Of a DNA stretch of 64,000 nt, positions 21,411 to 58,013 are shown in pieces. Source of the stretch: Flavobacteriales bacterium (GTDB lineage Bacteria > Bacteroidota > Bacteroidia > Flavobacteriales_D > Sanyastnellaceae); the NCBI GenBank assembly GCA_029242765.1, contig JAQWTJ010000004.1, positions 72-64,071 of the forward strand, given 5' to 3'. Both the position numbers and the translations under genes were made by a program. Position 1 is the stretch's first letter, and each line of letters starts with the position of its first letter. Under the pieces are notes generated by a model. That model saw nothing but the letters and a program-made list of their open reading frames with translations. It had not been told where the DNA came from and made no database searches.

Positions 21411-22034
21411 TCACTCCCCTCCGAAAGAGAAGGGAATCCCGCGGGCATCAATCACGTCGAACTGCTCCTCCCCTGGAGCACCCGTGGTGCGTGTGCGACC
21501 GTGCACGTTCAGCATGCCTGAAACGACCCCCTCGGTGGTGAGCTGCATGATCAGAATGCGACCGCGTTCATCGGCTTGGGCTTGCAACATATCGGGCGTT
21601 ACAAACCACGCCCCATTGTCGCTAAAAATGCGCCCGCCTTCAGTGAACCCGCTGAAATCAATCATGAAACCGGTCAAGGCGTTCATGTAGTTGTCCTCAA
21701 AACCAATGGTCACCCAGCTGTCGTAGCGAAGTTCTTCATTGGCAAGCGCCACATCACGCTTGGTGTCCTTGGAGAGGTCTCCCCCCAGTGGGCTCTGGTA
21801 AAAAGGTTTGGTGCTTTCCACGACGAGGACATCCTCCCCGTCACCGAACACGGCGTCGAGGATGTCACCCTCGCTTTCCATAACCACGTACACACGGTAG
21901 GTCGTGCCCGGCACAACACCGTGGTTGTCAATGGCCTCGACTTCGAGTGTCTTGTATTGGCCTAAAGCAGAGGTGGAAACTAAGCAGGTTGCAGCAAGTA
22001 AAACGGCCACAAAAAGGTGAGAAAAGTGCTTCAT
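21411..22034 (-). CDS. secreted protein made of one copy of an unnamed domain (TYRVY...DSWVTIG...GRILIMQLTTEG)
   Basis: Signal peptide MKHFSHLFVAVLLAATCLVSTSALGQ. The remaining ~180 aa align with domains in the products of 23061..26195, 55483..57795 and 58014..59732. Confidence 0.6.
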   Translation of the reverse strand: MKHFSHLFVAVLLAATCLVSTSALGQYKTLEVEAIDNHGVVPGTTYRVYVVMESEGDILDAVFGDGEDVLVVESTKPFYQSPLGGDLSKDTKRDVALANEELRYDSWVTIGFEDNYMNALTGFMIDFSGFTEGGRIFSDNGAWFVTPDMLQAQADERGRILIMQLTTEGVVSGMLNVHGRTRTTGAPGEEQFDVIDARGIPFSFGGE

Positions 22035-22066
22035 AGAATTGGGAGAATAGTGAAAGTTCGACAAAA

Positions 22067-23056
22067 TCAATTGCGAATGATCCAGCCGCGATCAAGAATA
22101 CGTCCGCCAAGATTTCGGCTGTTGAAGCCGCCAGCTTGTCGAGCTAAGAAATAAGAAATGGTAATTTCATGCGTGTGCGGAGACAAGCGCCCCACATCGC
22201 TAGTGGTCAAATCATAGCTGTAGGTAACTCTCACATCGTTTGATCCGCCCCCTATGGAGAGCACGATGGCGTCGCTCTGGCGGAAGCCAATGCCGCCCCA
22301 CAGCATATCGCGGTAGGACAAGTTCAAGTACGCGTCGAGTTGAGCGGGCGTGATGCCCGTAAAACGCGCCACAGCAGCAGGCTTAAAAGTGAATTCGTTG
22401 TTGATGAGGTAACGGTAATGGCCCATCAATAGGTAGTGGCGAATGAGTCGATTGCGTTGATCCGTCGGCTCTGAATCCCAACCGATTGCGTTTTGCATCA
22501 AGTTCGGAATAGCCATTCCGAAGGCGTAGTTCTTGCCGAAAACCATCATCCCGAAGCGCGCATCGGCTGTGAAGCTAGTCTCCAAGGCCCCCGTAAGCGC
22601 GGGATCATTGTCCTCCCAGACCTCCAAATCGCGGCCATCAAAGCTCAACTGCTGCGCCAGCAAGCCCAAGCCGAAGGACACGGCATCCTGGTTGTTCAAG
22701 TCCAGCGTATACGTGCCGGTCAGTTCCACACCCGTACGGCTCATCGCACCACCCATGTCGTCTTGCTCGAGCACGATGCCCGCACCGAAACGGTTGGGCA
22801 AGCCCATGGCAGCCGATATCGAAAAGGTCGTCGGAGCTCCGTCAAAGCCAGCCCACTGGTTTCGGTAGTTGGCCGAAGTAAAGGTTCCAGGCTGGATGCC
22901 AGCCATGGCCGGATTGAGCAGAAATGGATTGTGGATGAACTGCGAACGCCGAGGAACTTGTTGTGCGTTGACGTCGGTTGTAAAAAGGCCGAACGCACCT
23001 ATAGCGCACACCATACAAAGCAGCGCTGCAAAAGAGGAAGTCTTATTCAATCGCAT
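22067..23056 (-). CDS. PorP/SprF family type IX secretion system membrane protein
   Basis: RRSQFIHNPFLLNPAMAGI...ANYRNQWAGFDGAPTTF matches the PorP/SprF signature. The gene lies 4 bp downstream of a type B CTD adhesin gene, which is the canonical pairing. Confidence 0.85.
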   Translation of the reverse strand: MRLNKTSSFAALLCMVCAIGAFGLFTTDVNAQQVPRRSQFIHNPFLLNPAMAGIQPGTFTSANYRNQWAGFDGAPTTFSISAAMGLPNRFGAGIVLEQDDMGGAMSRTGVELTGTYTLDLNNQDAVSFGLGLLAQQLSFDGRDLEVWEDNDPALTGALETSFTADARFGMMVFGKNYAFGMAIPNLMQNAIGWDSEPTDQRNRLIRHYLLMGHYRYLINNEFTFKPAAVARFTGITPAQLDAYLNLSYRDMLWGGIGFRQSDAIVLSIGGGSNDVRVTYSYDLTTSDVGRLSPHTHEITISYFLARQAGGFNSRNLGGRILDRGWIIRN

Positions 23057-23060
23057 GGTT

Positions 23061-26000
23061 TCAGTACTTCAAGGTGACCGTTCCAGTGAGGGGCTCCATG
23101 CCCGACTCAACCGTGATAACGTAATAGTAATCGGCGGCCGGTAAAGGCGACCCGTTCATTGTTCCGTCCCACCAAGCGCGGGCTTGGACAGACCTGAAGA
23201 CCAATTGGCCCCATCGATTGTAAACGGTCACTTCGGATCCGGGGAAAAATTCTAATCCTCCCACAACCCACAAGTCGTTGATGCCATCCCCGTTGGGGGT
23301 CAAGGCATCCGCAACGAACAGGCAGTCCTCGGTCGGTTCAACAGTCGCTAAAAATCCCAGGGTGCAGCCGATATCGTCTGTCACCACCAAACTATACGTG
23401 TCCTCTGGCAGACCAATCGCCGTTGCCGAAACTTGGGCCAAAGCATCGCTCCATTGATATTGGATCGGGTATTGACCTCCTGTGACAGCAGCAGTGGCCG
23501 TGCCATCAGCTGTTTGCCAACAACTCACCGGCGAGGTGAACACCTCGACGACCATGTCCGTTTCAATGTCGGCAATCACCACCAACACGGAGTCCACCGT
23601 ACAGCCGAGACTGTCCGAGCCGGAAATGGCGTACTCTCCTTCAAATAAATTGAGCAAGTCGACGACTCCCTCATTGAAGACCCATTCCGTAGGCCCAGTG
23701 CCTCCTACTGTAGCAATAATAGCCACCCCGTCGTCCATACCCGTACAGGTTACATTTTGAACAGCGATGTCGAACACCAGCGGTTCCGGCTCAACCACCG
23801 ACACCATAAGCGAGTCTGAACACCCATTCTCATCCTCTACATACAGGGCATAGGATTGCGCACAAAGGTTGATTAACGCATTGGGAGAAATGGCCGTTGA
23901 ATCCGTCACAGCGTCCAGGTACAATTGCAATGCCCCTGTGCCCCCACTGCTAGCCACTTCAATCGCTCCAGTGCATTCCGCACCACAATCCAAATCATCC
24001 ACATTGACCGCCTCAAGCAGGACCTGCTCTGGCTCTAGCACAACGATTTCCAAACTATCAATGCACCCCAAGCTATCTCCCACCGTCAGCATCAGGGTGT
24101 CGCCAGGCAAGCCCATCAGGGTGTCTGGCAATGCAAAGACAAAGGGCGAAATGAGCGAAAGTGCTCCGCTGCCGCCTGTGGCATTCACAATCACCGATGC
24201 ATCACCAGCCCCAAGGCAGGACACCGGCGTGATGGTCGGCGTAATGACAATTGCACCGGGCTCCACCACAGTCGCCTCAACTGGGTCGCTTGCACAGCCC
24301 AGTGAATCAACCACAAACACTTGATAGAACCCTGCGGGCACATTGAAGCAATCCTCTTCTTGGCCGCCAGCTGGTAAGGGCACAAGTTCTGCAGTCAACG
24401 GGCCCGTTCCACCCACCAAGTCGGTCACGCAGATGGAACCGGCTGCTGCGCCTGAGCACGACACATTTGTCACATCGACTGAAAAGAAAATCGTATCCGG
24501 TCCAGAAATACTCAAAGTGTCCACCACATTACACAGGAAGGCGTCAGCGGTCATATGGATGTAGTCCCCAGGGCAGAGTAAGCCCGGGTTAACCTCGTTG
24601 CCGTCGAGGTCCGTCACGGTGATGACGTAAGGCAATTCGCCCCCCACGATATCCGCGAGCAACAAGCCATTGCATTGGCCTGCACACTCTACATTACTCA
24701 AGGCATAGCTCACATTCAAGCCCTCCGGCTCGATAATCACGAGCTGCTCGGAAGCCGTGCAGCCGTTAATGTCCACAAGATCGAAGGTATAGGTGCCACT
24801 CGGCAAATTATCCAGTGCGTACTCGATAGGCGCAGAACCGGAAATTTCATTGGCCAATTCAACCAATGTCAATGTCAATTGCCCCGTACCTCCCGAAGCC
24901 GATGCCGCAACTGAAGCATCCGCGTATCCAGTGCACGTCACCTCCGTAGCCGAAGCGTCAAGGACCAACTCCTCGGGACAAGAGATCACGATGGAGGTGT
25001 CACTCACGCATAAATTCTCGTCCGTCACTGACACGGTGTACGTTCCGTCACCGAGAAAGCAAGACAAGTCTGAAAAGCACCCGTCGGTCGGCCCCAAATC
25101 CAAGCCTACATCGTGGTGTGCATTGAAAGCAAGGGCACCGGTGCCGCCCGTGGCTTCGGCACAAATTTGTGCGATATCCGAACCACCGCACAAATTATCC
25201 TGTACTAAAGTCACTGACAAATCCAGAAGCGGGGGCTCCACAAAACTAAAAACCTCCGTCGTGTCTCGGCAACCGTTGTCCACATCCACGATGGCCACAA
25301 AAAACTCACCCTCGGGCAACACGATGGTGTCATCACCAGATTGTTGAGAGAACAAGGTGGTGTCGCCGTCAATTTCAAAGACGGTGTACTCAATCGATTC
25401 TGGGAAGGCCCCGTCGCCGATTAGCACCTCAGCGGAATCCCCATTGCAAGCGATGGGCTGCAAAACCGTGACTTCAGGATCGATGAGTTGGGCACAAAAA
25501 TCCGTGACTTGGTAAATTCCGTCGGTGCAGCGAATATTCAATTGACCGCCGCCGGCAGGAACACCTTCCGGCCAGTAATTGACACATAATTGAAGTTCAA
25601 AGGTGCTGCACGTGGTAATCTGGCCCACCAAAATGCGCAGGTCCGCACCGGTAATTGAACCGGGGTCAGGAGGCGTGGTAAAAATGGCTTGGTCAGGAAT
25701 TTGCGTCGTGCAAATATTGTCAGGCAAAGCCAGCAATGATCCATAGCCAGGCGTGGAAGAAAGCGAACTGCCTTGAAGGTTGTCCGTCGCCCCGATGGTC
25801 CACCACGTGTCGTAGGCCAGTTCAGGAAAGGCTGGAACCAGGGGGGCGTTGATGCTAGAGCCCAGATTGCTACCCAAAACATTGTTGTAACATCCGCAGG
25901 CCGCGTTGTAAAAGAACGGCGGGATCGGCTCCCCGGCGGCATCGTCCGCCGCAATGGCTCGCACTTCATCGGCGGGATCGTCCATAATGGCGTAAATCTT

Positions 26001-26195
26001 GTAGCGTCGAAATCCGGCTGGAATGTCTGCGTAACCGTCATACAGCACCGTGTCCTGCACGACCTCCAGGTCGAGGTCGTACTCAATCTGAGCTGTCAAC
26101 GGGGCCGAGAAGCCGAGCGTCAGAACGGCCAGAAACAGGCCGAGCAAGTGGCTGACCGAATTCGTATAGTGCACAGGGCAATTTTGCATAGCCAT
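23061..26195 (-). CDS. SprB-repeat cell-surface adhesin with T9SS type B (gliding-motility-associated) C-terminal domain
   Basis: The C-terminus LTPNGDGINDLWVVGGLEFFPGSEVTVYNRWGQLVF...WDGT...LPAADYYYVI fits the type B CTD. The body has about 10 Cys-containing SprB-like repeats (VSCLGAGDASVIVNATGGSGAL, VTCTGMDDGVAIIATVGGTGP...). ATG candidates are at 26195 and 26189, followed by a signal peptide. Confidence 0.85.
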   Translation of the reverse strand: MAMQNCPVHYTNSVSHLLGLFLAVLTLGFSAPLTAQIEYDLDLEVVQDTVLYDGYADIPAGFRRYKIYAIMDDPADEVRAIAADDAAGEPIPPFFYNAACGCYNNVLGSNLGSSINAPLVPAFPELAYDTWWTIGATDNLQGSSLSSTPGYGSLLALPDNICTTQIPDQAIFTTPPDPGSITGADLRILVGQITTCSTFELQLCVNYWPEGVPAGGGQLNIRCTDGIYQVTDFCAQLIDPEVTVLQPIACNGDSAEVLIGDGAFPESIEYTVFEIDGDTTLFSQQSGDDTIVLPEGEFFVAIVDVDNGCRDTTEVFSFVEPPLLDLSVTLVQDNLCGGSDIAQICAEATGGTGALAFNAHHDVGLDLGPTDGCFSDLSCFLGDGTYTVSVTDENLCVSDTSIVISCPEELVLDASATEVTCTGYADASVAASASGGTGQLTLTLVELANEISGSAPIEYALDNLPSGTYTFDLVDINGCTASEQLVIIEPEGLNVSYALSNVECAGQCNGLLLADIVGGELPYVITVTDLDGNEVNPGLLCPGDYIHMTADAFLCNVVDTLSISGPDTIFFSVDVTNVSCSGAAAGSICVTDLVGGTGPLTAELVPLPAGGQEEDCFNVPAGFYQVFVVDSLGCASDPVEATVVEPGAIVITPTITPVSCLGAGDASVIVNATGGSGALSLISPFVFALPDTLMGLPGDTLMLTVGDSLGCIDSLEIVVLEPEQVLLEAVNVDDLDCGAECTGAIEVASSGGTGALQLYLDAVTDSTAISPNALINLCAQSYALYVEDENGCSDSLMVSVVEPEPLVFDIAVQNVTCTGMDDGVAIIATVGGTGPTEWVFNEGVVDLLNLFEGEYAISGSDSLGCTVDSVLVVIADIETDMVVEVFTSPVSCWQTADGTATAAVTGGQYPIQYQWSDALAQVSATAIGLPEDTYSLVVTDDIGCTLGFLATVEPTEDCLFVADALTPNGDGINDLWVVGGLEFFPGSEVTVYNRWGQLVFRSVQARAWWDGTMNGSPLPAADYYYVITVESGMEPLTGTVTLKY

Positions 26196-26377
26196 AGGTG
26201 TCAAGGGCGCGCAAAATAATGCATTTGCAGGGGACGCTCCCGATGAAATATCGCGACCTGGGCCGATGGGGTTGCATGCAACAAGCATAATGTGTATAAA
26301 CAGTTGATTACGTACGCCTTACGAGAGAGTAGAAATGTGCAACGTTTTCTGCTGCATCGCGTATTTGTTGTGTAGCT

Positions 26378-27397: not shown

Positions 27398-30300
27398 ATG
27401 CACAACATCTTCCGAATAGCAACCACCTGCTGTACGCTGCTTTGCACGCTCCTCTTTTTCCTTCAGACCTCATACGCTCAGGACACCGTCCACGTTTCAA
27501 TGATCACCACCTTGAGCGGAACTGAAATTGAGACGGCAATGCCGATTGGAGGTTGCAGTTTGACGGCCATTGACATTTCATTGAACATCGTCGCAGGCGG
27601 GAGCAATTGGGCGGGAGATATGGCCTTAGGCATCACTGCTCCAAATGGAGTTAGTATTCAATTTGGAGGGTACAACACAGGGTTCGGATACACCGAAGCC
27701 GCCGCTTGGCCCTCGGATTGGAACAGCACCTCGGACGGACTTTTTCAAGCGCACATTGGGGACTTGGCGGCCCACGGGCTGACCGGTGACGGGTGTTGGA
27801 CCGTGGAAATGATGAACGCCTGGACCTCAGGAGGGCCGTCTGACTATGTGCTAGAACTCGACTTGATCGGAGTTTGCTCAAGCGGTGGTTCGACGGGCTG
27901 TACCGATCCCCAGGCAAACAACTTTGACGACTGCGCCTTTGTCGACGACGGCTCGTGCACTTACCCGGAACTCAGCGCTGTATTTAGCTTTTCCCAAGAT
28001 TGCAGTGTGCCGGCTCTCGTTGAGTTCTCAGAACAAAGCTTAGGGAATGTTCAAAGTATGGCCTGGACCTTTGCCGGGGGGGACCCCGAAAGTTCGACCG
28101 ACCCCAACCCCATTGTGAGCTTTGCGTCGGTTGGCGATTTTGCGGTGACCTTGGAAGTGTACGACGATGAGGGCGGATCCGCAATCAATCTCGACACGGT
28201 GCACGTTTCAAATGCCCAGCGTCGCCTGCAAATTGTCATCACGCCTGATGCTTTCCCTTTCGAGACTTCATTTGCCGTGCTGAACGAAGCGGGTGACACA
28301 CTTCACCAAGGAGGTATTGAAGGGCTTGATGTGTGCGTTGAAGACGAATGCCTGGCAGTGTGGCTGCACGACAGTGGTGGCGACGGGTTCTCAATCGGCG
28401 GATTTTACAAGGTGCAGCTCGACGATGTGGTCTTGGAAGAGAACACGCACTTTGATGACGCCAAACTCGTGTACGCCGGGTGCCCTCAAGGGCAATCTTG
28501 TGACGACCCACTCATGATTATTGAGGGCGTGCAGACCGCGCCGCTTTCTGAGACGTGGTATGAAATCAATGTGCCGACCACTGGGCTTTATAAATTGGCC
28601 AGCTGTGGGCTGTCCCAGTGCGACACCGAAATCATCCTCTACGACCATTGTGACATGGCCGTATTCTGGGGAGAGAGCGAAGCCTTCATCACAGCGTCCG
28701 ACGACGACTGCGACGTGCAATCCCAAATCACGCCGATTATGGAGACCGGCATCACGTATTACGCGAGAATCGTGAACCACGACCCCAATTGCGACGGGGC
28801 GACGAGCTTCGAGTTTGAGGCCCTGGGGGGCGTTGTGGGGTGCATGGAACTTTTGGCCTGCAACTACCTGCCCATCGCAACGGAGCCGGACGTCTGCTAT
28901 TTTGCAGGCGACCCGGAGTGCCCCAGCTTCGGTCCTGATTTGATCATCAACGGCCCACGCGCGTACAGCACATTGGAATTGTACACTGAGAACAGCACCG
29001 ACGCCTGCATGATCGAAGAAGGCTGCATCCAAGGGTACGGTGAACGTGAGATCGTCCGATTCGACACTGAAATTGCGAACATCGGTACGGAGGACTATTT
29101 CATCGGCGCACCGAGCGCACAGCCCGAGCAATTCGAGTGGGATGCCTGCCACAATCACTACCACTATGAAGGCTATGCCGAGTATGCACTGTACACGAGC
29201 GGGGGCTCAGCTTGGCCGACGTTGGGCTTCAAGAACGGATTCTGCGTGATGGATTTGGGCGGCTGCAATTACGGTGGAGGTCCGGCCAAGTACACTTGCG
29301 GCTACATGGGCATCACAGCGGGCTGTCAGGACATATACTCGCGTTATCTCAACTGCCAATGGATCGACATCACGGATGTTCCCGCGGGCGATTACACATT
29401 GGTGATTCGGGTAAATTGGGATTTCTCTCCTGATGGCAATGGCTCCTACGAACTGGACTATTCAAACAACGCAGTGGCCATTTGTTTCTCTTTCGAACGG
29501 GACGATACGGGCGCTGCGGTAAACTTCACCAAAACCGAGGACTGCGATGTTCCGACGGATTGCCTCGGGGCGCCGTACGGGTCAAGCGTTCCGGACTGTG
29601 CCGGCAACTGCCCTGGCACCATTGTCAAGGGTGATTTGGACCTGGATGGGGAAGTCGACGCGGACGATCCGCTGGAGTACATCGACATGCTGATTGAGGG
29701 CGTGAGTACGGCAGCTCCGTGCGTGGATTTGAACGCGGACAGCGAATTGTCAGTCACCGATGCAGCGCTAGCTGCTGACTGCGCCTATTATGGCCACAAC
29801 CACTTGGGCGAAAATGGCGTGGAAAACCACTGCGATTGGAACGGGCCACTTCTTGCGCCTGACCAAAACGCCGAGTTCGGCATCAGCATGCCCTACCCCG
29901 ATTCCGCCTTTGTGGACTTGTCTGTGCACAATCCAACGTCTTGGCTGAGCAGTTGGGAAGTGCAACTGAGCGGGGCGACCTTCACCACGATTGAGCCCCT
30001 GTACGATACGACGGGCTTCCACCACCACTTTCAGGTCACACCCGAGGGCTACGCATTGTGTGTGGCGTTGGCCGACAGTTTGGTCGGCAAAAGTGCGTCG
30101 GTGCAGCCGTTGGTGCGCATTCACTTTGTTACGCCATCTTTCGACGGCGTATGCCTCGACAGCGTGGGTGACGTGACCAATGAAGATCGCCACGATATAA
30201 CGGCCACAGGCTCGGGATGCATCAACAGTGACGTGTGCACGGGCGACATCGACGGCAACGGCATCCGAGATGTGGGCGACTTGCTTGTAGCTTTAGGCGC

Positions 30301-30421
30301 CTTTGGATGCATAGGTGAAGGCTGTAGCGCATCAGATTTAGGCGCCGACCTTGACAACGACGGATTTGTGGGCGTAAACGACCTGCTCATTCTTCTGAGT
30401 TTGTTCGGGCAGCCTTGCTAA
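27398..30421 (+). CDS. secreted multi-domain lysyl-oxidase-like protein with dockerin-like C-terminal tails (LOX-1)
   Basis: Domain order is: signal peptide, P-domain-like module, Cys mini-module, PKD-like domain (aa ~193-270), TD..ETS/DSGGDG module, PPC-like module, LOX catalytic domain (aa ~512-700, CHNHYH...QWIDITDV), dockerin-like repeats, cohesin-like module. It ends in two EF-hand tails finishing LFGQPC*. Confidence 0.8.
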
Positions 30422-30467
30422 TGGCCCATTGGCTTGGATTGAAAATAACGGAAAGAACCGAAGCAAT

Positions 30468-33400
30468 ATGCTCGACGAAAAGCGTGGACAAACGTGGACT
30501 AAATTCGCGCCACGTTCTCGCCCAATGGAAGCACTAAGCAAGACCACGCATAACATCCGGATCGTCACAGCCGCCTCCTTGTTTGACGGCCACGACGCTG
30601 CGATCAACATTATGCGCCGCATTATGCAGCGTTCAGGTTGTGAAATCATCCACCTCGGGCATGACCGCAGCGTGGATGAAGTGGTCACGTGTGCGATTCA
30701 AGAAGACGCTCAAGCCATCGCCATGACCTCCTACCAAGGCGGTCACAACGAGTACTTCAAATACATGAAGGACTTGCTCGAAGAGCGTGGCGCCGGGCAC
30801 ATTCGGGTCTTCGGGGGCGGCGGCGGGACCATCTTGCCCGAGGAAATTGCCGAACTTCAAGGGTATGGCATCGAGCGCATCTACCACCCGGACGACGGGC
30901 GTGAGATGGGGCTGCAAGGCATGATCGACGATCTGGTCCAGCGCTGCGACTACGCCACAGTGACTGAACCCTCAGGCGAAATCGTCCGACTCTCCGAAAA
31001 AAATCCACAAGACATTGCACGGCTCATCACGGCAGCTGAAATGGGGCTCAAAAGCTTTGAAGCTGACCTTGAAAAGGTCCGTGAACAGGCCCAAACTGTG
31101 AGCGTCCCAGTGCTCGGAATCACTGGAACAGGCGGCTCGGGCAAGAGTTCGATGGTGGACGAATTGGTCCGACGTTTCCTATTGGACCAGCCAGACAAGC
31201 GCTTGGCCATAGTATCGGTCGACCCTTCAAAGCGCAAGACGGGCGGGGCGTTGCTGGGCGACCGCATCCGTATGAATGCCGTTTCCAACGACCGCGTGTA
31301 CATGCGATCGCTCGCCACGCGCCAGAGCAACCTCGCCTTGAGCCGCCACGTCGGCGACGCCCTGGGCATATTGAAGGTGGCCGGATTCGATTTGATCATC
31401 TTGGAGACCTCCGGCATCGGCCAGAGCGACACCGAGATACTCGACCACAGCGACGTTTCACTCTACATCATGACCCCCGAATTTGGGGCGGCCACGCAGC
31501 TGGAGAAAATCGACATGCTCGACTTTGCTGATTTGGTGGCCATCAACAAATTTGACAAGCGCGGGGGGCAAGACGCCTTGCGCGACGTGCGCAAGCAATT
31601 CAAGCGCAACCACGAATTGTGGGAAGCAGCCGATGACGACTTGCCCATCTTCGGAACCATCGCCTCGCAGTTCGGCGATCCTGGAACGAACCAACTGTAC
31701 AGCTCTGTGATGGAGAAGATGGTCGAGAAGACGGGGGCTTCCCTTGCCTCGTCCATGCCCACTGAAAGCGCCTCAAGTGAGAAGGTTCACGTCATCCCCC
31801 CCAAGCGAACGCGCTACTTGAGCGAGATTTCTGACACGGTGCGCGGATACAACGCTTGGGTCGAAGCCCAAGCCGCCATCGCCGGCCGTATCCAAAATCT
31901 GACCCGCGCAGCCGATGAACTCGAAGGCGACGCGAACAGCACCCAAGCCCTTTTGGCCCGCAAGGCCGAACTGCTCCTGGAACTCGACCCGAAAAACCTT
32001 CAATGGCTCGAAGCGTGGCCCGAAGAGGCCGCACGCTACAGTGCCGATGAGTATGTATTTAATGTGCGCGGAAAGGAGCTCTGCATCCCAACTTCGACCA
32101 CCTCACTTTCACAGCTGCAGATCCCTAAGGTGAGCGTGCCGAAACTCGACGGCTGGCGCGACCTCTTGCGCTGGGCGTTGCAGGAAAACCTGCCCGGTCA
32201 CTTCCCCTTCACCGCTGGGCTGTTCCCATTCAAACGCCGTGGAGAAGACCCCACGCGGATGTTCGCCGGAGAAGGCGGGCCCGAGCGCACCAACCGTCGA
32301 TTCCATTACGTCTCGGGTGATATGCCGGCCAAACGACTCTCCACCGCCTTTGACTCGGTGACACTGTACGGACGCGACCCGGGCGAGCGACCGGACATCT
32401 ACGGAAAAATTGGAAATGCAGGCGTGAGTATTTGCTGCTTGGATGACGCGAAAAAACTGTACAGCGGATTCAACCTGTGCGATCCATCGACAAGTGTATC
32501 GATGACCATCAACGGCCCAGCGCCCATGGTGCTCGCCTTCTTTCTCAACGCCGCCATCGACCAGAAATGTGAACAATACATCCGTGAGCATAAACTGGAG
32601 AACGAAGTAGAGAAGTTGCTGAAACAACGATGGGAGGCGCAAGGGCTGAAGCGGCCGCACTACAACGGGGAGCTGCCTGAGGGCAACGACGGGCTAGGGT
32701 TGATGCTCTTAGGTTGCACAGGCGATGAAGTACTCGACCGCAAAACCTACGCACGGCTTTCGGCCGAAGCCCTTACCCAAGTGCGTGGAACCGTCCAAGC
32801 CGACATTCTCAAAGAGGACCAGGCCCAAAACACCTGCATCTTTTCGACGGAGTTTGCCTTGCGTCTCATGGGCGACGTGCAAGCGCATTTCATCAATCAC
32901 AGCATCGGTAATTTTTATTCGGTCTCGATTTCGGGCTATCACATCGCCGAGGCCGGAGCAAATCCAATTTCTCAATTGGCCTTCACGCTCGCCAATGGTT
33001 TCACCTACGTTGAGTATTATCTCAGCCGGGGGATGGATATCAACGCCTTCGGACCGAACCTGAGCTTCTTCTTCTCCAACGGCATCGACCCGGAATACGC
33101 CGTAATCGGGCGGGTCGCACGACGCATCTGGTCGAAGGCCATGGACCGGAAGTACGGCGCAGGAGAAAAGGCACAAAAACTCAAATACCACATCCAAACC
33201 AGCGGCCGATCGCTGCACGCGCAGGAAATTGACTTCAACGACATCCGCACGACGTTGCAGGCCTTATATGCGATTTATGACAATTGCAACTCACTGCACA
33301 CCAACGCTTACGACGAGGCGATCACCACGCCGACCGAGGGCAGCGTACGGCGAGCTATTGCGATTCAGATGATTATCAATCGGGAATTGGGCTTAACCAA

Positions 33401-33884
33401 AAACGAGAACCCGCTGCAAGGCTCCTTCATCATTGAGGAGCTCACGGACTTGGTTGAAGAAGCCGTGATGATGGAATTCGACCAAATCACCGAGCGCGGA
33501 GGCGTGCTCGGCGCGATGGAAACGATGTACCAGCGCTCAAAGATTCAGGAGGAAAGCCTGCATTACGAGATGCTCAAGCACACGGGCGAGTACCCAATTA
33601 TCGGCGTGAACACCTTCCTTTCAAAGGAGGGCTCTCCCACCATCGTTCCGGGGGAGGTCATCCGCGCAACACCCGAGGAAAAGGCTACTCAAGTGCAAAC
33701 CGCGAAGACATTGCAGCAAGCCCATACGGAACGTTCAAGCGTTGCCCTGGATGCCGTTCAATCGGCCGCAACCCAACAAAGCAACGTGTTTGAAGTGCTC
33801 ATGGATGCTGTCAAGAGTTGTTCACTCGGTCAGCTTACAGACGCCCTATTCGAGGTGGGCGGTGCCTACCGCCGCAACATGTAA
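30468..33884 (+). CDS. icmF: fused isobutyryl-CoA mutase IcmF (B12-binding domain + MeaB-like GTPase + mutase domain)
   Basis: The N-terminus has the B12 motif ([12 protein letters not shown]...SYQGGH). The central part has the P-loop [12 protein letters not shown] and NKFD. The C-terminal mutase barrel has RMFAGEG and [12 protein letters not shown] at 30468. Confidence 0.88.
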
Positions 33885-34405: not shown

Positions 34406-36826
34406 TCACTTGACCGTGAAACGCAACACCCGGCGAAAGTCACTTTCGGTTACCGTTAGGTAGTATGCACCCGACTGCAGGCTGCTTGCATCGAGTATCC
34501 AACGATTGCTGCTGCCCCACACGTCCCGCATCACTTTTCGGCCGAGCACATCGAGCACTTCAACCGAAGCGCCCTCAAGGCTTACCCCTTCAAAGCGCAC
34601 TTCAGCACGATTTTGCACAAGGTTTGGATTCATCTGCAAGTCGGACGATTCATTCGTCTCGCTCACATCGAGCGGGTTTGAGCAAGCCACACCAATGAGC
34701 GGCACGGTGTTGTGATACACGCCATTAATTACGTCCGTGATGTGGTCGATACAAATCTCCTCTTCAGCCTCCCCTATCCAGTAGATCCGGCACAAAGGCG
34801 TGTATTCGTAATGCTTCATCATCGCGTCGTTCTCATAGCTTAGTCCAATAATCTCTTGGCCTCCCAAAGAAAAAGAAGGCGTGATTGGGAACACGATAGG
34901 ATCAGCAAGCGAAACCACCGACTCGATGTCCAAACCGGCCATCGTAAATTGATAGCCCACGATTTTATTGAAGGGGTTCAAGACATTGATATCGACAAAG
35001 CCCTGCTCCCAGTTGACGGCTCCCAAGGAGAACCACACCGAATCGTAAGGGTTGGTGATGTGCGACGCGGGGAAGTTACACCGGTCGTGAAATCCGCTGG
35101 AGTCAGGATGTTGATGAGCAATATTCCAGACGTTGCACTGGGCAAGCAAGGCCGCATCAGCCACCGTGACTTCGCCATCTTGGTCGGCGTCCACACACAT
35201 TGTGGCTTCCAAATCGCCGCCTAGGATGCCCGAAACGTATGACTGGGCGTCGGTCAGGTCTTGGTCCATGTCGGCGTCAAGATCGCCTAGCAAGGCCGAG
35301 CCGTTGCATTCACCCGTGCAGTCCACCACGGCTGTTCCGTATTGGTCTCCGTTGCAATCAACTAAAATGCTGCAATCCTGGATTTGCTCCACCTCAATTT
35401 CGCCCATTGAGCGGTCAATGTTGATGCAAACCACGCCCCAGTTGTTTTCGTACTGATTCTCGTAACGCCCCAGCGCATCAGGACTGTAATCCCAATTCAC
35501 TCGAACAACCAAGTGGTAGTCGCCGTCGGTGACGTCGGTGACATCAATCCATTGGCAGCTCAAACCGGAACCATAAATGTCGCCGCAATGGGCCGAGATG
35601 CCCATAATGGAGCATCCGTACTGGCCCGTGCCGCCATCACCGCACTCGAGGTCCATCACGCAGAATCCGTTCTTGAATCCAATCGGAAGCATGTTGCCGT
35701 CCATATCGAACAGGTCGTATCTCGCGTAGCCTTTGTAATGCCAGTGATTGTGGCAGTCCCCCCATTCAAATTGAACCGTCGAATCGTTGTTCGAGGTTGA
35801 ACCAATGTAATAATCGAGGTCTCCGATGTTCTTGATATGCGTGGTGAAGCGAACCAAGTCGCGCTCACCGTACCCGTTGAGGCAGCCTTCAGAAATGTAG
35901 CAATTGTTCTCGTCCACAGCCATCGTCTCAGCGGAGAGTGAATTTTCAATGGCCGAAGTCACGATGACCAGGTCCGGTCCTGTGCAATCTGGATCCCCTG
36001 GGTAAATGCAGCTTCCGTTGTCAATTTCAGCCCCCGGTTGATAATTGCACGCCGTTTCATCCATACAACCTTCTGGCAATCCCGCATAGTCAAACCACCA
36101 CTCAAAATCATCACAATCATCCAAGCTCGTGAAGCGTATCCAATACGTCACGCCGCCTTCGAGCAAAACCGTGAGCTGAGCTGACTCCGCCATGCCCTCG
36201 CAACCGCCTTGTTCGTCGTCGTAGTAGATCGAGCCTTCATTGGTGCTGTTAAAGTTGTTCATGTTGCAGTAATCGTACACCCACAAGCGCGTGTCACAAT
36301 TCGTTCCGCAACTGGACAAATCGTACATGCCGTTTTGATCCGGCGTAAAAGTGTACCACTGGACATCGGCATTTGAGGTGATCCACGTGCCGTAGTCAGC
36401 GGCGGTCAGCGGGGCGCCCGTGTCACAAATGGCACCCTCAGGACAACCGATCCAATGATTCTCTACAAACCCATAATTACCGCTATTGGTGATGACGGTA
36501 TCGCCGTCAAGCAGGACGGTGTAAGAACCGGGCGCGCTGAGCCCGTCGCCGTACGAATCAATCATAGAGAATCGCCAACAGGCGGTAAGTTCGTCTGCAC
36601 TAAAGCAAAGCGTGTCGCTCTCATACGTGCCCTCTGCAAGAAGTACATTGTCCCCGTCGTACAACCCCCACGAAATTTCTTGAGGCCAACTGTCAGGCAC
36701 AATCGACACGACCACTTGGGCCTCACTTTCAAGGCAATCTTGGGAGAAAACAAAGTTGGAAGAGACCGCAAAAGCAATCGTCAAAAGGGTGGTCAGCCCC
36801 GAAAAAAGGAGGTTTTTTAGGTTCAT
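34406..36826 (-). CDS. secreted multi-domain lysyl-oxidase-like protein with T9SS type A CTD (LOX-2)
   Basis: Signal peptide from the ATG at 36826 (MNLKNLLFSGLTTLLTIAFAVSSNFVFSQ). It then has the DSYGDG module, PPC-like module, Cys mini-module, LOX domain (CHNHWH...QWIDVTDV), dockerin-like repeats and cohesin-like module. The CTD is LQMNPNLVQNRAEV...LQSGAYYLTVTE...LRFTVK. Confidence 0.8.
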   Translation of the reverse strand: MNLKNLLFSGLTTLLTIAFAVSSNFVFSQDCLESEAQVVVSIVPDSWPQEISWGLYDGDNVLLAEGTYESDTLCFSADELTACWRFSMIDSYGDGLSAPGSYTVLLDGDTVITNSGNYGFVENHWIGCPEGAICDTGAPLTAADYGTWITSNADVQWYTFTPDQNGMYDLSSCGTNCDTRLWVYDYCNMNNFNSTNEGSIYYDDEQGGCEGMAESAQLTVLLEGGVTYWIRFTSLDDCDDFEWWFDYAGLPEGCMDETACNYQPGAEIDNGSCIYPGDPDCTGPDLVIVTSAIENSLSAETMAVDENNCYISEGCLNGYGERDLVRFTTHIKNIGDLDYYIGSTSNNDSTVQFEWGDCHNHWHYKGYARYDLFDMDGNMLPIGFKNGFCVMDLECGDGGTGQYGCSIMGISAHCGDIYGSGLSCQWIDVTDVTDGDYHLVVRVNWDYSPDALGRYENQYENNWGVVCINIDRSMGEIEVEQIQDCSILVDCNGDQYGTAVVDCTGECNGSALLGDLDADMDQDLTDAQSYVSGILGGDLEATMCVDADQDGEVTVADAALLAQCNVWNIAHQHPDSSGFHDRCNFPASHITNPYDSVWFSLGAVNWEQGFVDINVLNPFNKIVGYQFTMAGLDIESVVSLADPIVFPITPSFSLGGQEIIGLSYENDAMMKHYEYTPLCRIYWIGEAEEEICIDHITDVINGVYHNTVPLIGVACSNPLDVSETNESSDLQMNPNLVQNRAEVRFEGVSLEGASVEVLDVLGRKVMRDVWGSSNRWILDASSLQSGAYYLTVTESDFRRVLRFTVK

Positions 36827-37074
36827 GGTTTCAGTTGTCCTAAGCAGGTGTAAAGCATAACCCAGTTGAATAGAAAGGGGTTGCACAAGTGGTGAAAGGT
36901 ACAGAGCCGTGTGCTACTTTTGTAGGCACAACAGCACCGCAAGTTATGTCGCACGAATTTCATGAACCCGAAGAGAACGAAATCGCAGGCCCCGTTGTGT
37001 TGGCCCTGTTGATTGTAGCCATCATCGTCGTCTCCATCGCCTTGATGTAAGGCTCAACGGCCTTGGCACAAGGT

Positions 37075-40621: not shown

Positions 40622-42565
40622 TTAGCGCCGAACCAAGTGCTGAACCGCCCTCTTACCATCGGCAAGCTCCACGTGAAGCTGGTAACTTCCCGGCGCTATA
40701 CTGGCCGCCGGAACCGTCCAGGTAGACGAAACTGCAATACCGCTAGCTACACGTTGCCCGACCGCGTCAAGCAAGTACCAATTGGTCTTCGAAACGCCTG
40801 TAGAGGCCGCCAAGCCTGATGTATTTGTCAAACTGACCAGTTCGACTTTCCAAGCATCTGCAGTAGGGTTCGGGCCAACTTTCAAGGCCGACGAACCGCC
40901 CAGTTCACCCACACCATTCGAGCAATCAAAGACCGTCACGAAAATGGCGTCAGCGTAAGAGCAGCCCACATCATTGGAGGCCGTCAACACATAACTGTAT
41001 GTGCCCGCTCCCAAAGCTTGGCCATCAACCACAATGAATTGATCTACAGAACCTGTACTCCATTCATACGACAAGCCCGCAGGAGCGTAGAGAAGTAATG
41101 TTTCATTGTTGCAAATTGTCGTGTCTGCGCCCAAGGAAAATGAGAACGCATCGCCCTGCTCGACCAGCTCAAAATCGATGCTCACCGAACAACCATTGGC
41201 GTCTACAACCGAGACCTCATAAGTACCGACATCCAGCCCTTCAAGCCCCATTCCGTCACCCAAATCGCCATCGGGCCCAGTCCAAGCGTACTGATACTGA
41301 CCGGCGCCTCCTGATGCGTCAATAGATGCCCAACCATCCATAGAATCAGGGCAGCCAGGACCCTCAAACTGTAAATTGCTTACCAACTCTTCAACCTCGT
41401 CGAAGGTGACGCTGTATGACATCACCGAGCCACAGGACGTTGAAATCAAAGCTGAGTACGAGCCGAAATTGAGCCCCGTAAGCTGCCAATCCTCTGAAGC
41501 AAAACCGCCCGACCCAATCCAAGCCACGTCGTAGTCCGATCCTGTGCCTGTCATGTTTAACACCACATAACCGGAGGGGTCCTCACCGTCTCCGATTGCG
41601 CATTGAAGACCGCCTGTTGCCGCTGACAATTCAGCCTCCACTGCAGAAGAGGCCACCGAGACAGCCACCGTTCCATCACTGCCTTGCCAACCGTCAATTT
41701 GAATCAAATACGTTGCACCAGGCTCCAAGCAGCCCGTCCACAGGCGGCTGGCATAATACGCCCCCGGGCCGCATCCTCCAGGTATGTCATCGTTTGCACT
41801 GAGCAACTCGTACGTGCTGAAGTCGCCGCAATCATCAGCCTTCCACAAAGCCACCTGCGTGTCAAAATCGGTGGAGTCATGGCAGAGGTTGACCTCGCAA
41901 TTGCCCTCCTGCGCAACGAATGTGAGCCAAGCCGTTTCGCTCAGGCCCGACTCGCACCAAGCACCGCCAATGCTACAGGAATACACAGCAGACACAGGAG
42001 GAGAAGGCTCACCGAAGGCGGCCATGCACTCGCCTGTTTCCAGAATCAAAGTGTCGCCGTTCACCTCGATCGGCAGTGCGCCGCATGGCGAATCATAAGC
42101 AGGAGCCGACAGTTCGCCCACCACAAAAGACCAATCATTGCCATCACCTGTGCCAACATAGGTGCCGGCCAAAATGCCTTCGAAAAACAACTCGAAAAAC
42201 AAGCCTCCATCGCCGTAAGAGTCAATGTGAACTAGGTGCAAGGTGTCGCCCGTTGCAGCACACAAACTGTCCTCAACAACGATAATATTGCTGTCATATC
42301 CGTTGCCGCCTTGCACGTCCCCGTCGCCATTGCAACCGACGTCTTCAATATTTCCACCTTCAAAAATCAGGCTGTCGGCGCACAACATATTGTTCGGTAC
42401 AATGGCCCAATACGATTCGTAGCCCCAGGCGTCCGTATGGATTTCCAATGACATCGCCGTCTGCCCCTCAGGGCAGATTTGCGCATTCAACACATTCAAC
42501 AATCCAAACTGCACAAAGGCAGCACCCAGAATCAGCCCACAGGCTTTTGCAATTTTTTGGTTCAT
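40622..42565 (-). CDS. secreted Cys-rich protein with T9SS type A CTD
   Basis: Signal peptide MNQKIAKACGLILGAAFVQFGLLNVLNAQ. It has a DSYGDG module, a PPC-like module and SprB-like repeats (GPGCPDSMDGWASIDASGGAGQYQYAW). The CTD is LKVGPNPTADAWKVEL...PGSYQLHVEL...HLVRR. Confidence 0.7.
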   Translation of the reverse strand: MNQKIAKACGLILGAAFVQFGLLNVLNAQICPEGQTAMSLEIHTDAWGYESYWAIVPNNMLCADSLIFEGGNIEDVGCNGDGDVQGGNGYDSNIIVVEDSLCAATGDTLHLVHIDSYGDGGLFFELFFEGILAGTYVGTGDGNDWSFVVGELSAPAYDSPCGALPIEVNGDTLILETGECMAAFGEPSPPVSAVYSCSIGGAWCESGLSETAWLTFVAQEGNCEVNLCHDSTDFDTQVALWKADDCGDFSTYELLSANDDIPGGCGPGAYYASRLWTGCLEPGATYLIQIDGWQGSDGTVAVSVASSAVEAELSAATGGLQCAIGDGEDPSGYVVLNMTGTGSDYDVAWIGSGGFASEDWQLTGLNFGSYSALISTSCGSVMSYSVTFDEVEELVSNLQFEGPGCPDSMDGWASIDASGGAGQYQYAWTGPDGDLGDGMGLEGLDVGTYEVSVVDANGCSVSIDFELVEQGDAFSFSLGADTTICNNETLLLYAPAGLSYEWSTGSVDQFIVVDGQALGAGTYSYVLTASNDVGCSYADAIFVTVFDCSNGVGELGGSSALKVGPNPTADAWKVELVSLTNTSGLAASTGVSKTNWYLLDAVGQRVASGIAVSSTWTVPAASIAPGSYQLHVELADGKRAVQHLVRR

Positions 42566-42630
42566 GTCGCAATGTAATCACACCACTTCAATGCACGCCT
42601 TCTGCATTGCTTGCCGTAATTTCGCGCCCC

Positions 42631-43395
42631 ATGTTGGTTCTGCTCTCTCCAGCCAAGTCCTTTAAAAAGGCCAATGCCACTACGGCTGCAGGTGGTTCAC
42701 AGCCCATTTTTCTAAATGAGGCTGAACAGCTTGTCGACAGCTTATCAAAGCTCAGCACTCCCGAGATTGAAACGCTCATGAGTGTGAATCCGGAAATTGC
42801 TGCCACCAACTTTGAGCGCTACCAGCGCTGGGAACGGCCCTTCCACCCTGGAAATTCTGAACCTGCAATTCTCGCTTTTGACGGCGAAGTATACCGCGGT
42901 TTGGCCGCTGACAAGTGGGGCGTGCAAGATCAAGAATTTGCTCAGCGCCACTTGCGCATTTTAAGCGGCCTGTATGGCGTACTGCGCCCCAATGACCTCA
43001 TTCAGCGCTACCGACTCGAAATGGGAAGTAAGTTGGTGCTCAACGGAGAAGGCAATTTGTATAGCTTCTGGGGGGATCGTATCGCTAGGCAATTGGCCGA
43101 CGAATCGGACGGCCCCATCATCAACCTGGCCAGCAACGAATACATCAAATCGGTCGTGGGCATCAAGGACCGCTTGATCCCATGCCACTTCAAGGACCGC
43201 AAAGGCGATGAGTACAAGACTTTGATGACTTATGCCAAACACGCCCGTGGTGCCATGGCTAGGTTCATTGTAAAGAATCGTATTGACAGGCCAGAAGGAT
43301 TGGCCGAATTCAATGAGAATGGATACACATTCCGCCCGGATTTCTCCGACAAAACGCAAATGACCTTCGTGCGGGACGAACAAATAAAATCATGA
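42631..43395 (+). CDS. yaaA: peroxide stress protein YaaA (UPF0246/DUF328)
   Basis: The ATG at 42631 gives MLVLLSPAKSF... Other motifs are AFDGEVYRGL, LRILSGLYGVLRPNDLIQRYRLEM and MTYAKHARGAMARFIV. Confidence 0.85.
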   Translation: MLVLLSPAKSFKKANATTAAGGSQPIFLNEAEQLVDSLSKLSTPEIETLMSVNPEIAATNFERYQRWERPFHPGNSEPAILAFDGEVYRGLAADKWGVQDQEFAQRHLRILSGLYGVLRPNDLIQRYRLEMGSKLVLNGEGNLYSFWGDRIARQLADESDGPIINLASNEYIKSVVGIKDRLIPCHFKDRKGDEYKTLMTYAKHARGAMARFIVKNRIDRPEGLAEFNENGYTFRPDFSDKTQMTFVRDEQIKS

Positions 43396-57795: not shown

Positions 57796-58013
57796 ATCGA
57801 GTGAGTTAATTTGACTGTGTAAGTTAAGGACTATCGGGTTCATTATGCTCTCATTTACAAAGCCGTAGGAGAATTAAGATTCCTCCGACAATTGCAAATC
57901 AGAAGGCCGAACCAACCGAAATTGATCCGGCCTTCCGGAGCTAAAGATGCGAGGCAGTTTCTTGCCTTTGACAAAACTGACTTAAGTCACTTGTTCCGCT
58001 GACGGTTGTTCTC

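Follow-up and report, generated by a model that had tools for sequence, protein, structure and literature searches.

We found that a 64,000-nucleotide stretch of DNA from an uncultured marine Flavobacteriales bacterium (family Sanyastnellaceae; assembly GCA_029242765.1, contig JAQWTJ010000004.1, positions 72 to 64,071 of the forward strand), hereafter the window, encodes a bona fide member of the lysyl oxidase (LOX) family that has a complete set of catalytic, disulfide and Ca2+-site residues. We call this gene and its product LOX1. It is a complete open reading frame (ORF) at 27398..30421 (+), stop codon included, that has no internal stops and encodes 1007 aa. The protein consists of a signal peptide, an orphan domain, a PKD domain, two β-domains, the LOX domain, a dockerin-like module, a cohesin-like module and a terminal 'GC-type' dockerin-like tag. 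On balance, we favor the view that LOX1 is an exported amine oxidase that uses Cu and lysyl-tyrosylquinone (LTQ) and is held in a complex of the cell envelope; its substrate and its location we infer.

Lysyl oxidases are also found outside animals, and the sole characterized prokaryotic enzyme is archaeal and is cryptic in its host. LOX1 and a paralog encoded nearby, LOX2, provide a better-constrained case: a strongly conserved, duplicated and syntenic pair in a marine Flavobacteriales clade whose members are widespread, with catalytic machinery that is fully intact and accessory modules that point to an envelope- or surface-associated complex.

LOX1 contains a complete lysyl-oxidase domain

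The lysyl-oxidase catalytic domain comprises aa 504-717 of LOX1 (28907..29548, +). LOX1 matched the Pfam family PF01186 (IPR001695) with 102.5 bits (E = 3.1e-29), above the curated threshold of 20.4 bits. The match spans aa 545-700 of the protein and positions 47-195 of the 204 in the profile. Among all PDB sequences, phmmer matched LOX1 to human LOXL2 (5ZE3) at E = 5.9e-22, and the two proteins aligned residue for residue over CHxHYH, HK/FKxxFC, GCxDxY...CQWxDITDVPxGDY and DYSNN. LOXL2 was the protein against which we made the motif comparison to the animal enzymes.

The predicted fold agreed with the sequence matches. An AlphaFold2 model of aa 504-717, made with a 21-sequence alignment as input, had a mean pLDDT of 88.9 and a pTM of 0.85. 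When this model was compared to the PDB with Foldseek, the only significant matches were chains A and B of 5ZE3 (E = 3.4e-16 and 2.1e-15; probability 1.00; TM 0.73-0.74; 30-31% identity). The next match had an E value of 0.04.

Catalytic and structural residues are conserved

The Cu-binding His triad of LOX1, H585-x-H587-x-H589 (29150..29164, +), aligned to CHRHYH of LOXL2. The LTQ lysine, K612 (29231..29233, +), lies in GFKNGFC, aligned to HKASFC, and the tyrosine precursor of LTQ, Y647 (29336..29338, +), lies in GCQDIY, aligned to GCWDMY. An earlier note on this DNA, made from the sequence alone, had claimed a complete LOX domain with these five residues in a 1007-aa bacterial protein. The ORF, the match to PF01186 (a search that the note had proposed) and the sequence and fold matches to LOXL2 all agree with that claim. 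The six LOX motifs that the note quoted are all found in the LOX1 translation, and its positions for the five residues, and for residues 512-700 at 28931..29497, are exact.

We found that these residues are conserved. A search of 5.8 billion proteins returned 19 full-length relatives of LOX1 (1001-1014 aa; 59-96% identity), all of them metagenomic. H585, H587, H589, K612 and Y647 were invariant across an alignment of 20 LOX1 orthologs, and the same five were invariant in 21 diverse homologs, down to 31% identity, as expected if the copper triad and the LTQ pair were retained as the note had claimed. Eight cysteines (C537, C543, C584, C616, C623, C634, C643 and C653) and the equivalents of the LOXL2 Ca2+-site residues (D514, E685, N690 and N691) were also invariant in the ortholog alignment. 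The cysteines are presumably paired in disulfides as in LOXL2, and we assigned the pairs by that analogy. All 20 orthologs matched PF01186. The LOX domain is the best-conserved segment of the protein, with 80-97% identity compared to 59-96% for the whole.

We also compared 190 related LOX domains from 148 diverse representatives of the close LOX proteins (P0052-P0199). C537, C543, C584, C616, C634 and C653 were each present in 171-177 of the 190 domains, and D514, E685, N690 and N691 in 172-175; C623 and C643 were specific to a subgroup. The His/Lys/Tyr set had been lost in ~20% of the domains. Retention of the catalytic residues in LOX1 is thus informative and not automatic. Two to four tandem LOX domains were present in 38 of the 148 proteins. 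The losses probably occurred mostly in such tandem-domain proteins, and this suggests that the domains missing these residues are pseudo-enzymes paired with active ones.

LOX1 departs from the human protein at the first 'talon' His, where it has Asp (FEWDACH in LOX1 vs WEWHSCHQHYH in the human protein). The Asp-type pattern is found in bacterial, fungal and amoebozoan LOX proteins and was argued to be compatible with activity (Grau-Bove et al. 2015, PMC4448552).

Judging from its residues, LOX1 is probably catalytically competent. Going by what is known of the family, Cu2+ bound at H585, H587 and H589 would catalyze a self-processing reaction in which Y647 is oxidized and becomes cross-linked to K612, generating LTQ. 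The mature enzyme would then convert primary amines (peptidyl-lysine or others) to aldehydes, NH3 and H2O2. The note had proposed a check of whether these five residues converge in a model. This would be a weak criterion for competence, because Lys and Tyr are reportedly far apart in the LOXL2 precursor (5ZE3), the one solved structure, described by Zhang and colleagues in 2018.

Alternatively, the LOX domain could be non-catalytic or repurposed, binding a metal or an amine ligand or carrying out Cu chemistry without LTQ. The losses among the close representatives indicate that the fold tolerates non-catalytic use, and native cells of Haloterrigena turkmenica had no detectable amine oxidase activity, even though the recombinant enzyme was active (PMC6452851). 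However, the catalytic residues of LOX1, the three near-universal disulfide pairs and the four Ca2+-site residues do not vary in the 20 orthologs, the catalytic residues are kept in LOX2 too, and no other segment of LOX1 is as well conserved as the LOX domain. We consider a non-catalytic LOX1 very unlikely.

LOX2 is a paralog of LOX1

The window encodes a second lysyl oxidase, LOX2 (34406..36886, -), that we found with tblastn 4 kb from LOX1. An earlier reading of this DNA had missed both LOX2 and the cohesin/dockerin-like C-terminal half of LOX1, although these are less usual than the LOX domain itself. The LOX2 ORF is 826 aa long from a GTG codon; the likely start is an ATG at 36826, which gives a product of ~806 aa. 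LOX2 aligned to aa 273-943 of LOX1 with 36% identity. It has the two β-domains (mid1 and mid2, below) and the LOX, dockerin-like and cohesin-like modules, and is missing the N-terminal orphan domain and the PKD domain.

The LOX domain of LOX2 (35372..35998, -) is 49% identical to that of LOX1, and LOX2 matched PF01186 with 102.1 bits (E = 4.1e-29). Its catalytic residues lie within 35573..35752 (-): the His triad at 35738..35752 (in CHNHWHY), the Lys at 35672..35674 (in GFKNGFC) and the Tyr at 35573..35575 (in GDIYGSG). LOX2 ends in a borderline match (34409..34627, -) to the type A C-terminal sorting domain of the type IX secretion system (T9SS; TIGR04183 and Por_Secre_tail). A LOX2-type relative (P0024) has a clear T9SS C-terminal domain, with 47.4 bits to TIGR04183.

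The LOX1-LOX2 locus is conserved in marine Flavobacteriales

When one genome of each GTDB species was scanned, 116 relatives were found. Nearly all of the best 80 of the 116 were from metagenome-assembled genomes (MAGs) labelled Flavobacteriales, Crocinitomicaceae or Bacteroidota, and none of these 80 came from an isolate in culture. A full-length LOX1 ortholog (57-64% identity) was present in about 25 MAGs that are apparently of marine origin. The remaining loci had a shorter relative (37-44% identity) without the N-terminal domain, and several of these were in MAGs that are apparently from freshwater.

The order of genes around LOX1 is conserved. PorP-SprB-(DUF3089)-LOX1-IcmF...LOX2-S46 was syntenic in ~24 species of marine Flavobacteriales represented by MAGs. 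LOX2 was present in 18 of the 18 syntenic loci that we fetched and that reached ~21 kb, and a gene for an S46 peptidase adjoined LOX2 in every syntenic locus that was long enough. In the window, the gap between DUF3089 and LOX1 is 9 nt and that between LOX1 and IcmF is 7 nt. The gene upstream of LOX1 varies by species and is either DUF3089 or a pseudouridine synthase. We considered the genomic context as a clue to the substrate and set it aside: the upstream gene varies, and the adjacency to IcmF looks like plain synteny.

Three contigs that contain the LOX1 locus or a relative, L007 (CAXQGL010000019.1), L031 and L057, carried the discordant labels 'Nitrosopumilus sp.' or 'Comamonadaceae'. L007 had the full PorP-SprB-DUF3089-LOX1-IcmF-LOX2-S46 synteny. 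These labels are probably binning errors.

Such labels, together with the striking likeness to animal LOX at the level of motifs, could indicate that LOX1 is an artefact of assembly or binning, or a fragment of an animal or other eukaryotic gene that was transferred recently. We give almost no credence to this explanation. LOX1 is only 30-31% identical to LOXL2 and, like other bacterial LOX proteins, lacks the first talon His. The gene has no introns, and its product has a bacterial signal peptide that follows the Q-rule (below). Its GC content (0.558) is similar to that of the window (0.544) and of IcmF (0.564). Moreover, in independent assemblies of ~24 MAG species it is found at one and the same place in the gene order, next to T9SS genes that are specific to Bacteroidota. 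GC content, synteny and bacterial signature rule out an artefact or eukaryotic contamination.

The N-terminal half of LOX1

LOX1 begins with a Sec-type signal peptide, read from the sequence (aa 1-27; 27398..27478, +), with a predicted cleavage site at SYA/QDT. Q28 and D29 were invariant in the 20 orthologs and the residues just before them varied. In Bacteroidetes, a Gln at position +1 after cleavage is known as the Q-rule, and the invariant Gln agrees with the signal-peptide call. The note's view of LOX1 as a multi-domain protein was upheld.

The next domain (aa 28-166; 27479..27895, +) is specific to this family. It had no match in Pfam and no profile match in the PDB, and a profile of it returned only fragments of orthologs from the 5.8 billion proteins. 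It was seen only in LOX1 orthologs and is missing from LOX2 and from the freshwater relatives, the matches of which start at ~aa 161. It is followed by a Cys-rich linker module (aa 167-190; 27896..27967, +). LOX1 has a second copy of this linker (aa 481-508; 28838..28921, +). Both were conserved in the ortholog alignment.

The PKD domain (aa 202-265; 28001..28192, +) scored 24.6 bits against the Pfam PKD cutoff of 23.5, and all 20 family members were matched by PKD and PKD_4, at best with E = 5.5e-11. The two β-domains that follow are conserved and contain Cys; they were defined from alignments and are also present in LOX2. The first, mid1 (aa 270-366; 28205..28495, +), contains the motif ITPDxFPxETS...DSGxDGFS. 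It had no Pfam match, and its profile matches in the PDB were at chance level only. We also considered mid1 as a relative of the N-terminal domain of LOX1 and rejected this (hhalign probability 1%). The second, mid2 (aa 367-480; 28496..28837, +), is Cys-rich and had a weak match to PF23759 (GBD_T9SS_assoc; E = 0.0062), under the cutoff; PF23759 is also among the precomputed annotations of a relative (P0021). Profile searches of the PDB with mid2 gave chance-level matches only. Mid2 is possibly galactose-binding-like. NCBIfam has no name for the whole LOX1 protein.

The C-terminal half of LOX1 has dockerin-like and cohesin-like modules

A profile of aa 716-1007 matched only cellulosomal dockerins in the PDB, at two places: ~aa 742-792 to 2vn5_B (E = 0.006) and ~aa 948-1000 to 2y3n_B (E = 8e-4). 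The first corresponds to an internal module (aa 742-795; 29621..29782, +) with two EF-hand-like Ca2+ loops, seen with the PDB profile, Pfam and AlphaFold2. The second corresponds to a double 'GC-type' tag that runs up to the stop codon (aa 947-1007; 30236..30418, +) and is helical in the model. All four EF-hand-like loops, two in each module, have the canonical spacing D-x-[DN]-x-[DN]-G-x-x-x-x-x-D. In the AlphaFold2 model, each loop is followed by a helix, and the internal module has two helices. Pfam Dockerin_1 (PF00404) matched 11 of the 20 orthologs at E <= 0.1 (best E = 5.3e-6). We call the modules dockerin-like, and not members of the dockerin family, because LOX1 itself scores below the curated cutoffs.

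Between the two helical modules, the model of aa 716-1007 (pLDDT 84.1; pTM 0.74) has a β-sandwich (aa 802-942; 29801..30223, +). The C-terminal model had 23 matches in the PDB by Foldseek at E <= 0.001, and 22 of them were to cohesins or cohesin-like proteins (E from 1.3e-6 to 1e-3; probability 0.99-1.00; target TM 0.46-0.58; identity 9-16%). These included type I cohesins of Clostridium and a non-cellulosomal cohesin of Archaeoglobus. Profile searches of Pfam and the PDB with the C-terminal half gave no sequence match to a cohesin.

An HMM of the dockerin-cohesin unit matched 54 of the 148 close LOX representatives, and LOX-dockerin-cohesin is thus a family-wide architecture. The terminal dockerin was found in only 3 of the 148.

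The terminal tag of LOX1 is shared with other exported proteins

The terminus of LOX1 weakly matched the NCBIfam model NF041540 (dockerin_GC, 'GC-type dockerin domain-anchored protein'), below the cutoff, with E = 0.006, and the full model was covered. Three further ORFs of the window, each with a signal peptide, end in close counterparts of the final 24 residues of LOX1, and a Cys precedes each counterpart. The consensus of this tag, D-x-N/D-x-D-G...D-L-L-x-x-L-x-x-F/Y-G-x-x-C, is a single EF-hand-like, Cys-bracketed element that ends 0-1 residue before the stop. A regular expression for the tag found four ORFs in the window (30347..30418, +; 50571..50642, -; 55489..55560, -; 58020..58091, -) and none in reversed translations. 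In the three proteins other than LOX1, the tag is a single Cys-bracketed half-repeat and not a full two-repeat dockerin.

At ~40% identity, the terminal ~60 aa of LOX1 also match the very end of subtilases and of reprolysin-like metalloproteases from metagenomes. We found no paper on 'GC-type dockerin' or NF041540 in the literature searched. The tag may represent a kind of anchoring or sorting signal not yet described for these Flavobacteriales, and its recurrence may mark an unrecognized anchoring system in T9SS-bearing bacteria.

Localization and possible functions of LOX1

The earlier note had described LOX1 as secreted or on the surface. What supports this is the Sec-type signal peptide. 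We detected no T9SS C-terminal domain of type A or B in LOX1 with TIGR04183, PF18962, Pfam or NCBIfam, and no conserved lipobox Cys. What the signal peptide establishes is export across the inner membrane only, because no T9SS tail or lipobox was seen.

We think it somewhat more probable than not that LOX1 acts beyond the periplasm as an enzyme with an LTQ cofactor, docked to a partner in the envelope. LOX1 would be exported by its Sec signal peptide and act as one member of the conserved LOX1/LOX2 pair. From its architecture, the terminal tag would act as a Ca2+-dependent protein-protein anchor, binding LOX1 to a cohesin-like partner located in the envelope, and the β-domains and PKD domain would bind a polymeric substrate. 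LOX2 would be exported through the T9SS. Given the sorting domain at its end, it is the more likely of the two to be presented on the cell surface or shed from it. As for a natural role, we favor the oxidation, outside the cell, of organic matter that is rich in lysine or bears amines, with release of nitrogen, aldehyde-mediated cross-linking to particles, or both.

Several observations weigh against an exported oxidase held in an envelope complex. LOX1 itself has neither a detected T9SS tail nor, in the alignment, a conserved lipoprotein Cys, and may stay in the periplasm. The tail of LOX2 is just under both cutoffs (TIGR04183, 22.7 bits vs 23, E = 7.4e-5; Por_Secre_tail, PF18962, 21 vs 27). 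LOX1 scored 14.6-16.2 bits against PF00404 (cutoff 22.9) and 17 bits against NF041540 (cutoff 29). The cohesin-like assignment comes from a predicted structure, with target TM values of only ~0.5, and the internal dockerin-like/cohesin-like pair may be a mere rigid structural unit and not a device for assembly. The neighboring IcmF, DUF3089 and S46 peptidase yield no clear clue to a substrate.

The main rival is that LOX1 is periplasmic and deaminates, for example, amines that have been imported or peptides that peptidases of the periplasm, such as the neighboring S46 dipeptidyl-peptidase, generate. The tag would then mediate attachment in the periplasm or to the outer membrane, and not display on the surface. 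This would fit a protein that has a signal peptide and in which no T9SS type A or B domain or conserved lipobox was detected, and also the presence of the S46 gene next to LOX2 in all syntenic loci of sufficient length. In contrast, modules of the PKD, galactose-binding-like, cohesin and dockerin types are typically found in proteins that are extracellular or on the cell surface, the paralog LOX2 bears a T9SS tail, and the other bearers of the tag are typical secreted enzymes (the plastocyanin/CBM48 protein in the window and the metagenomic subtilases and reprolysin-like proteases). The five or more disulfide-forming Cys pairs of LOX1 fit either compartment. Taken together, we regard a periplasmic LOX1 as unlikely.

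A bolder version of an envelope complex, which we hold to be quite doubtful, is that LOX1 and LOX2 are parts of an oxidative complex assembled by cohesin-dockerin interactions on the surface of these abundant, uncultured bacteria. LOX2 would be anchored by the T9SS, and the tag, as a general C-terminal anchoring or sorting signal, would recruit LOX1 and other tagged exoenzymes (the plastocyanin-like/CBM48 protein, the MopE-motif protein, subtilases and reprolysin-like proteases) to a cohesin-like receptor. Such a complex would be a non-cellulosomal analog of the cellulosome, loaded with redox enzymes and proteases, that attacks or cross-links proteinaceous marine particles. This proposal draws on the sub-threshold dockerin matches and one predicted cohesin-like fold, and the docking in it is itself a prediction.

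For the favored exported oxidase, three roles can be envisaged: release of nitrogen, aldehyde-mediated cross-linking or adhesion, and production of H2O2. Cross-linking and H2O2 production had been suggested in the note as possible roles. The sequence alone does not discriminate among the three. Nitrogen release would suit a marine flavobacterium that degrades protein and particles. If LOX1 is active, it would provide an extracellular route in the ocean that frees ammonium and reactive aldehydes or H2O2 from lysine-rich or amine-bearing organic matter.

Comparison to known lysyl oxidases and related systems

The LOX domain in prokaryotes is known biology and is found by routine Pfam annotation. 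LOX proteins occur in five bacterial phyla, including Bacteroidetes, and in two archaeal groups, as published in 2015, and activity was predicted from the same residues; all but three of these prokaryotic proteins were a LOX domain alone (Grau-Bove et al. 2015, PMC4448552). PF01186 was already precomputed for every database relative of LOX1. The earlier note had called prokaryotic LOX proteins sparsely distributed. This did not hold: when 1.84 billion cluster representatives (clusters at 50% identity) were searched exhaustively by HMMER using a profile of the LOX domain, 8195 clusters matched with E <= 1e-3 and 1458 of them with E <= 1e-30, many being multi-domain proteins of ~800 aa. The note's description of these proteins as barely characterized is fair, and the literature searched contained no relevant paper on lysyl oxidase in Flavobacteria. 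Compared to that literature, the cohesin/dockerin-like architecture, the LOX1/LOX2 pair, the clade-wide synteny and the shared terminal tag are new.

The recombinant enzyme from H. turkmenica (HTU-LOX) is a Cu-dependent amine oxidase of relaxed specificity that is sensitive to β-aminopropionitrile (BAPN) (Pestov et al. 2019, PMC6452851). What it does in the native host is cryptic, and a modest part in nitrogen availability was suggested (PMC6452851). LOX1 shares with HTU-LOX (compared by its description) and the other prokaryotic proteins PF01186, the three His and the Lys/Tyr pair, the absence of the first His, and an N-terminal signal sequence. Unlike them, it has at least eight more modules, a syntenic paralog and cohesin/dockerin-like parts.

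LOX1 and the animal enzymes (LOXL2 5ZE3 and human LOX) have the same fold, the CHxHxH Cu site and the LTQ Lys and Tyr. The Ca2+-site residues of DYSNN and PDL and the eight cysteines align position for position, and both are exported with accessory domains ahead of the LOX domain. In contrast to this likeness, identity is only 30-31% and the first talon His is Asp in LOX1. LOX1 has no SRCR domains or LOX propeptide, and has instead the orphan domain, PKD and two β-domains. The LOX domain is C-terminal in the animal proteins, whereas in LOX1 it is followed by the dockerin-cohesin-dockerin half. The host of LOX1 has no known collagen or elastin substrate.

The C-terminal half has features of non-cellulosomal cohesin/dockerin systems: duplicated EF-hand-like Ca2+ loops followed by helices, PDB profile matches to dockerins only and, less certainly, a predicted β-sandwich matched by cohesins of Clostridia and Archaeoglobus. 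Like the GC-type dockerin of NF041540, the tag ends in G-x-x-C and covers the full model. The differences are that LOX1 scores under curated cutoffs, that cohesin-like and dockerin-like modules flank each other in one polypeptide, and that an oxidase takes the place of a glycoside hydrolase as the cargo.

LodA of Marinomonas mediterranea and copper amine oxidases deaminate amines with a quinone cofactor and release H2O2; they are exported and found in marine bacteria. The chemistry predicted for LOX1 is analogous, as a functional analogy only. The folds and cofactors of these enzymes (cysteine tryptophylquinone in LodA and topaquinone in copper amine oxidases) are unrelated to those of LOX1, the model of which was significantly similar only to 5ZE3 in the PDB.

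Other tagged proteins and neighboring genes

The three other ORFs that end in the tag all encode proteins predicted to be exported. The product of the first (50565..53846, -; 1093 aa) has an N-terminal plastocyanin/azurin-like Cu domain, a pullulanase X25 domain and a CBM48/AMPK glycogen-binding domain. The combination of a cupredoxin with starch- or glycogen-binding modules is an unusual pairing. The second (55483..57843, -; 786 aa) has a MopE metal-binding motif as its only family feature, and the third (58014..59732, -; 572 aa) had no family match. All three have Cys-rich linker modules like those of LOX1. The linker G-C-T-D-x-x-A-x-N-Y-D-x-x-A-x-x-D-D-G-S-C is abundant in the second and third ORFs and is found twice in LOX1.

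A block of genes on the opposite strand (21411..26288, -) lies divergently upstream of LOX1. It encodes an SprB-repeat protein (23061..26288) with a type B (CHU_C) T9SS sorting domain, a PorP/SprF protein (22067..23056) and a further ORF, of 219 aa, that had no family match. The PorP/SprF protein is likely the cognate partner of the SprB-repeat protein, and the two identify the host as a member of Bacteroidota. The SprB/PorP block was in this position in all of the ~24 syntenic MAG loci that reached that far.

Downstream, IcmF (30429..33884, +) starts 7 nt past the LOX1 stop codon. It is a fused isobutyryl-CoA mutase/GTPase (NF045497, 1752 bits). Its adjacency to LOX1 is kept in all syntenic loci, with no evident functional connection to an exported oxidase. 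Scans for promoter and terminator consensus sequences around the locus gave matches at or below the shuffled expectation, with a consensus that is unsuited to promoters of Bacteroidota. Lastly, the window encodes a peroxide stress protein of the YaaA family (42448..43395, +) ~5.5 kb from LOX2. It is near two predicted producers of H2O2, possibly by coincidence.

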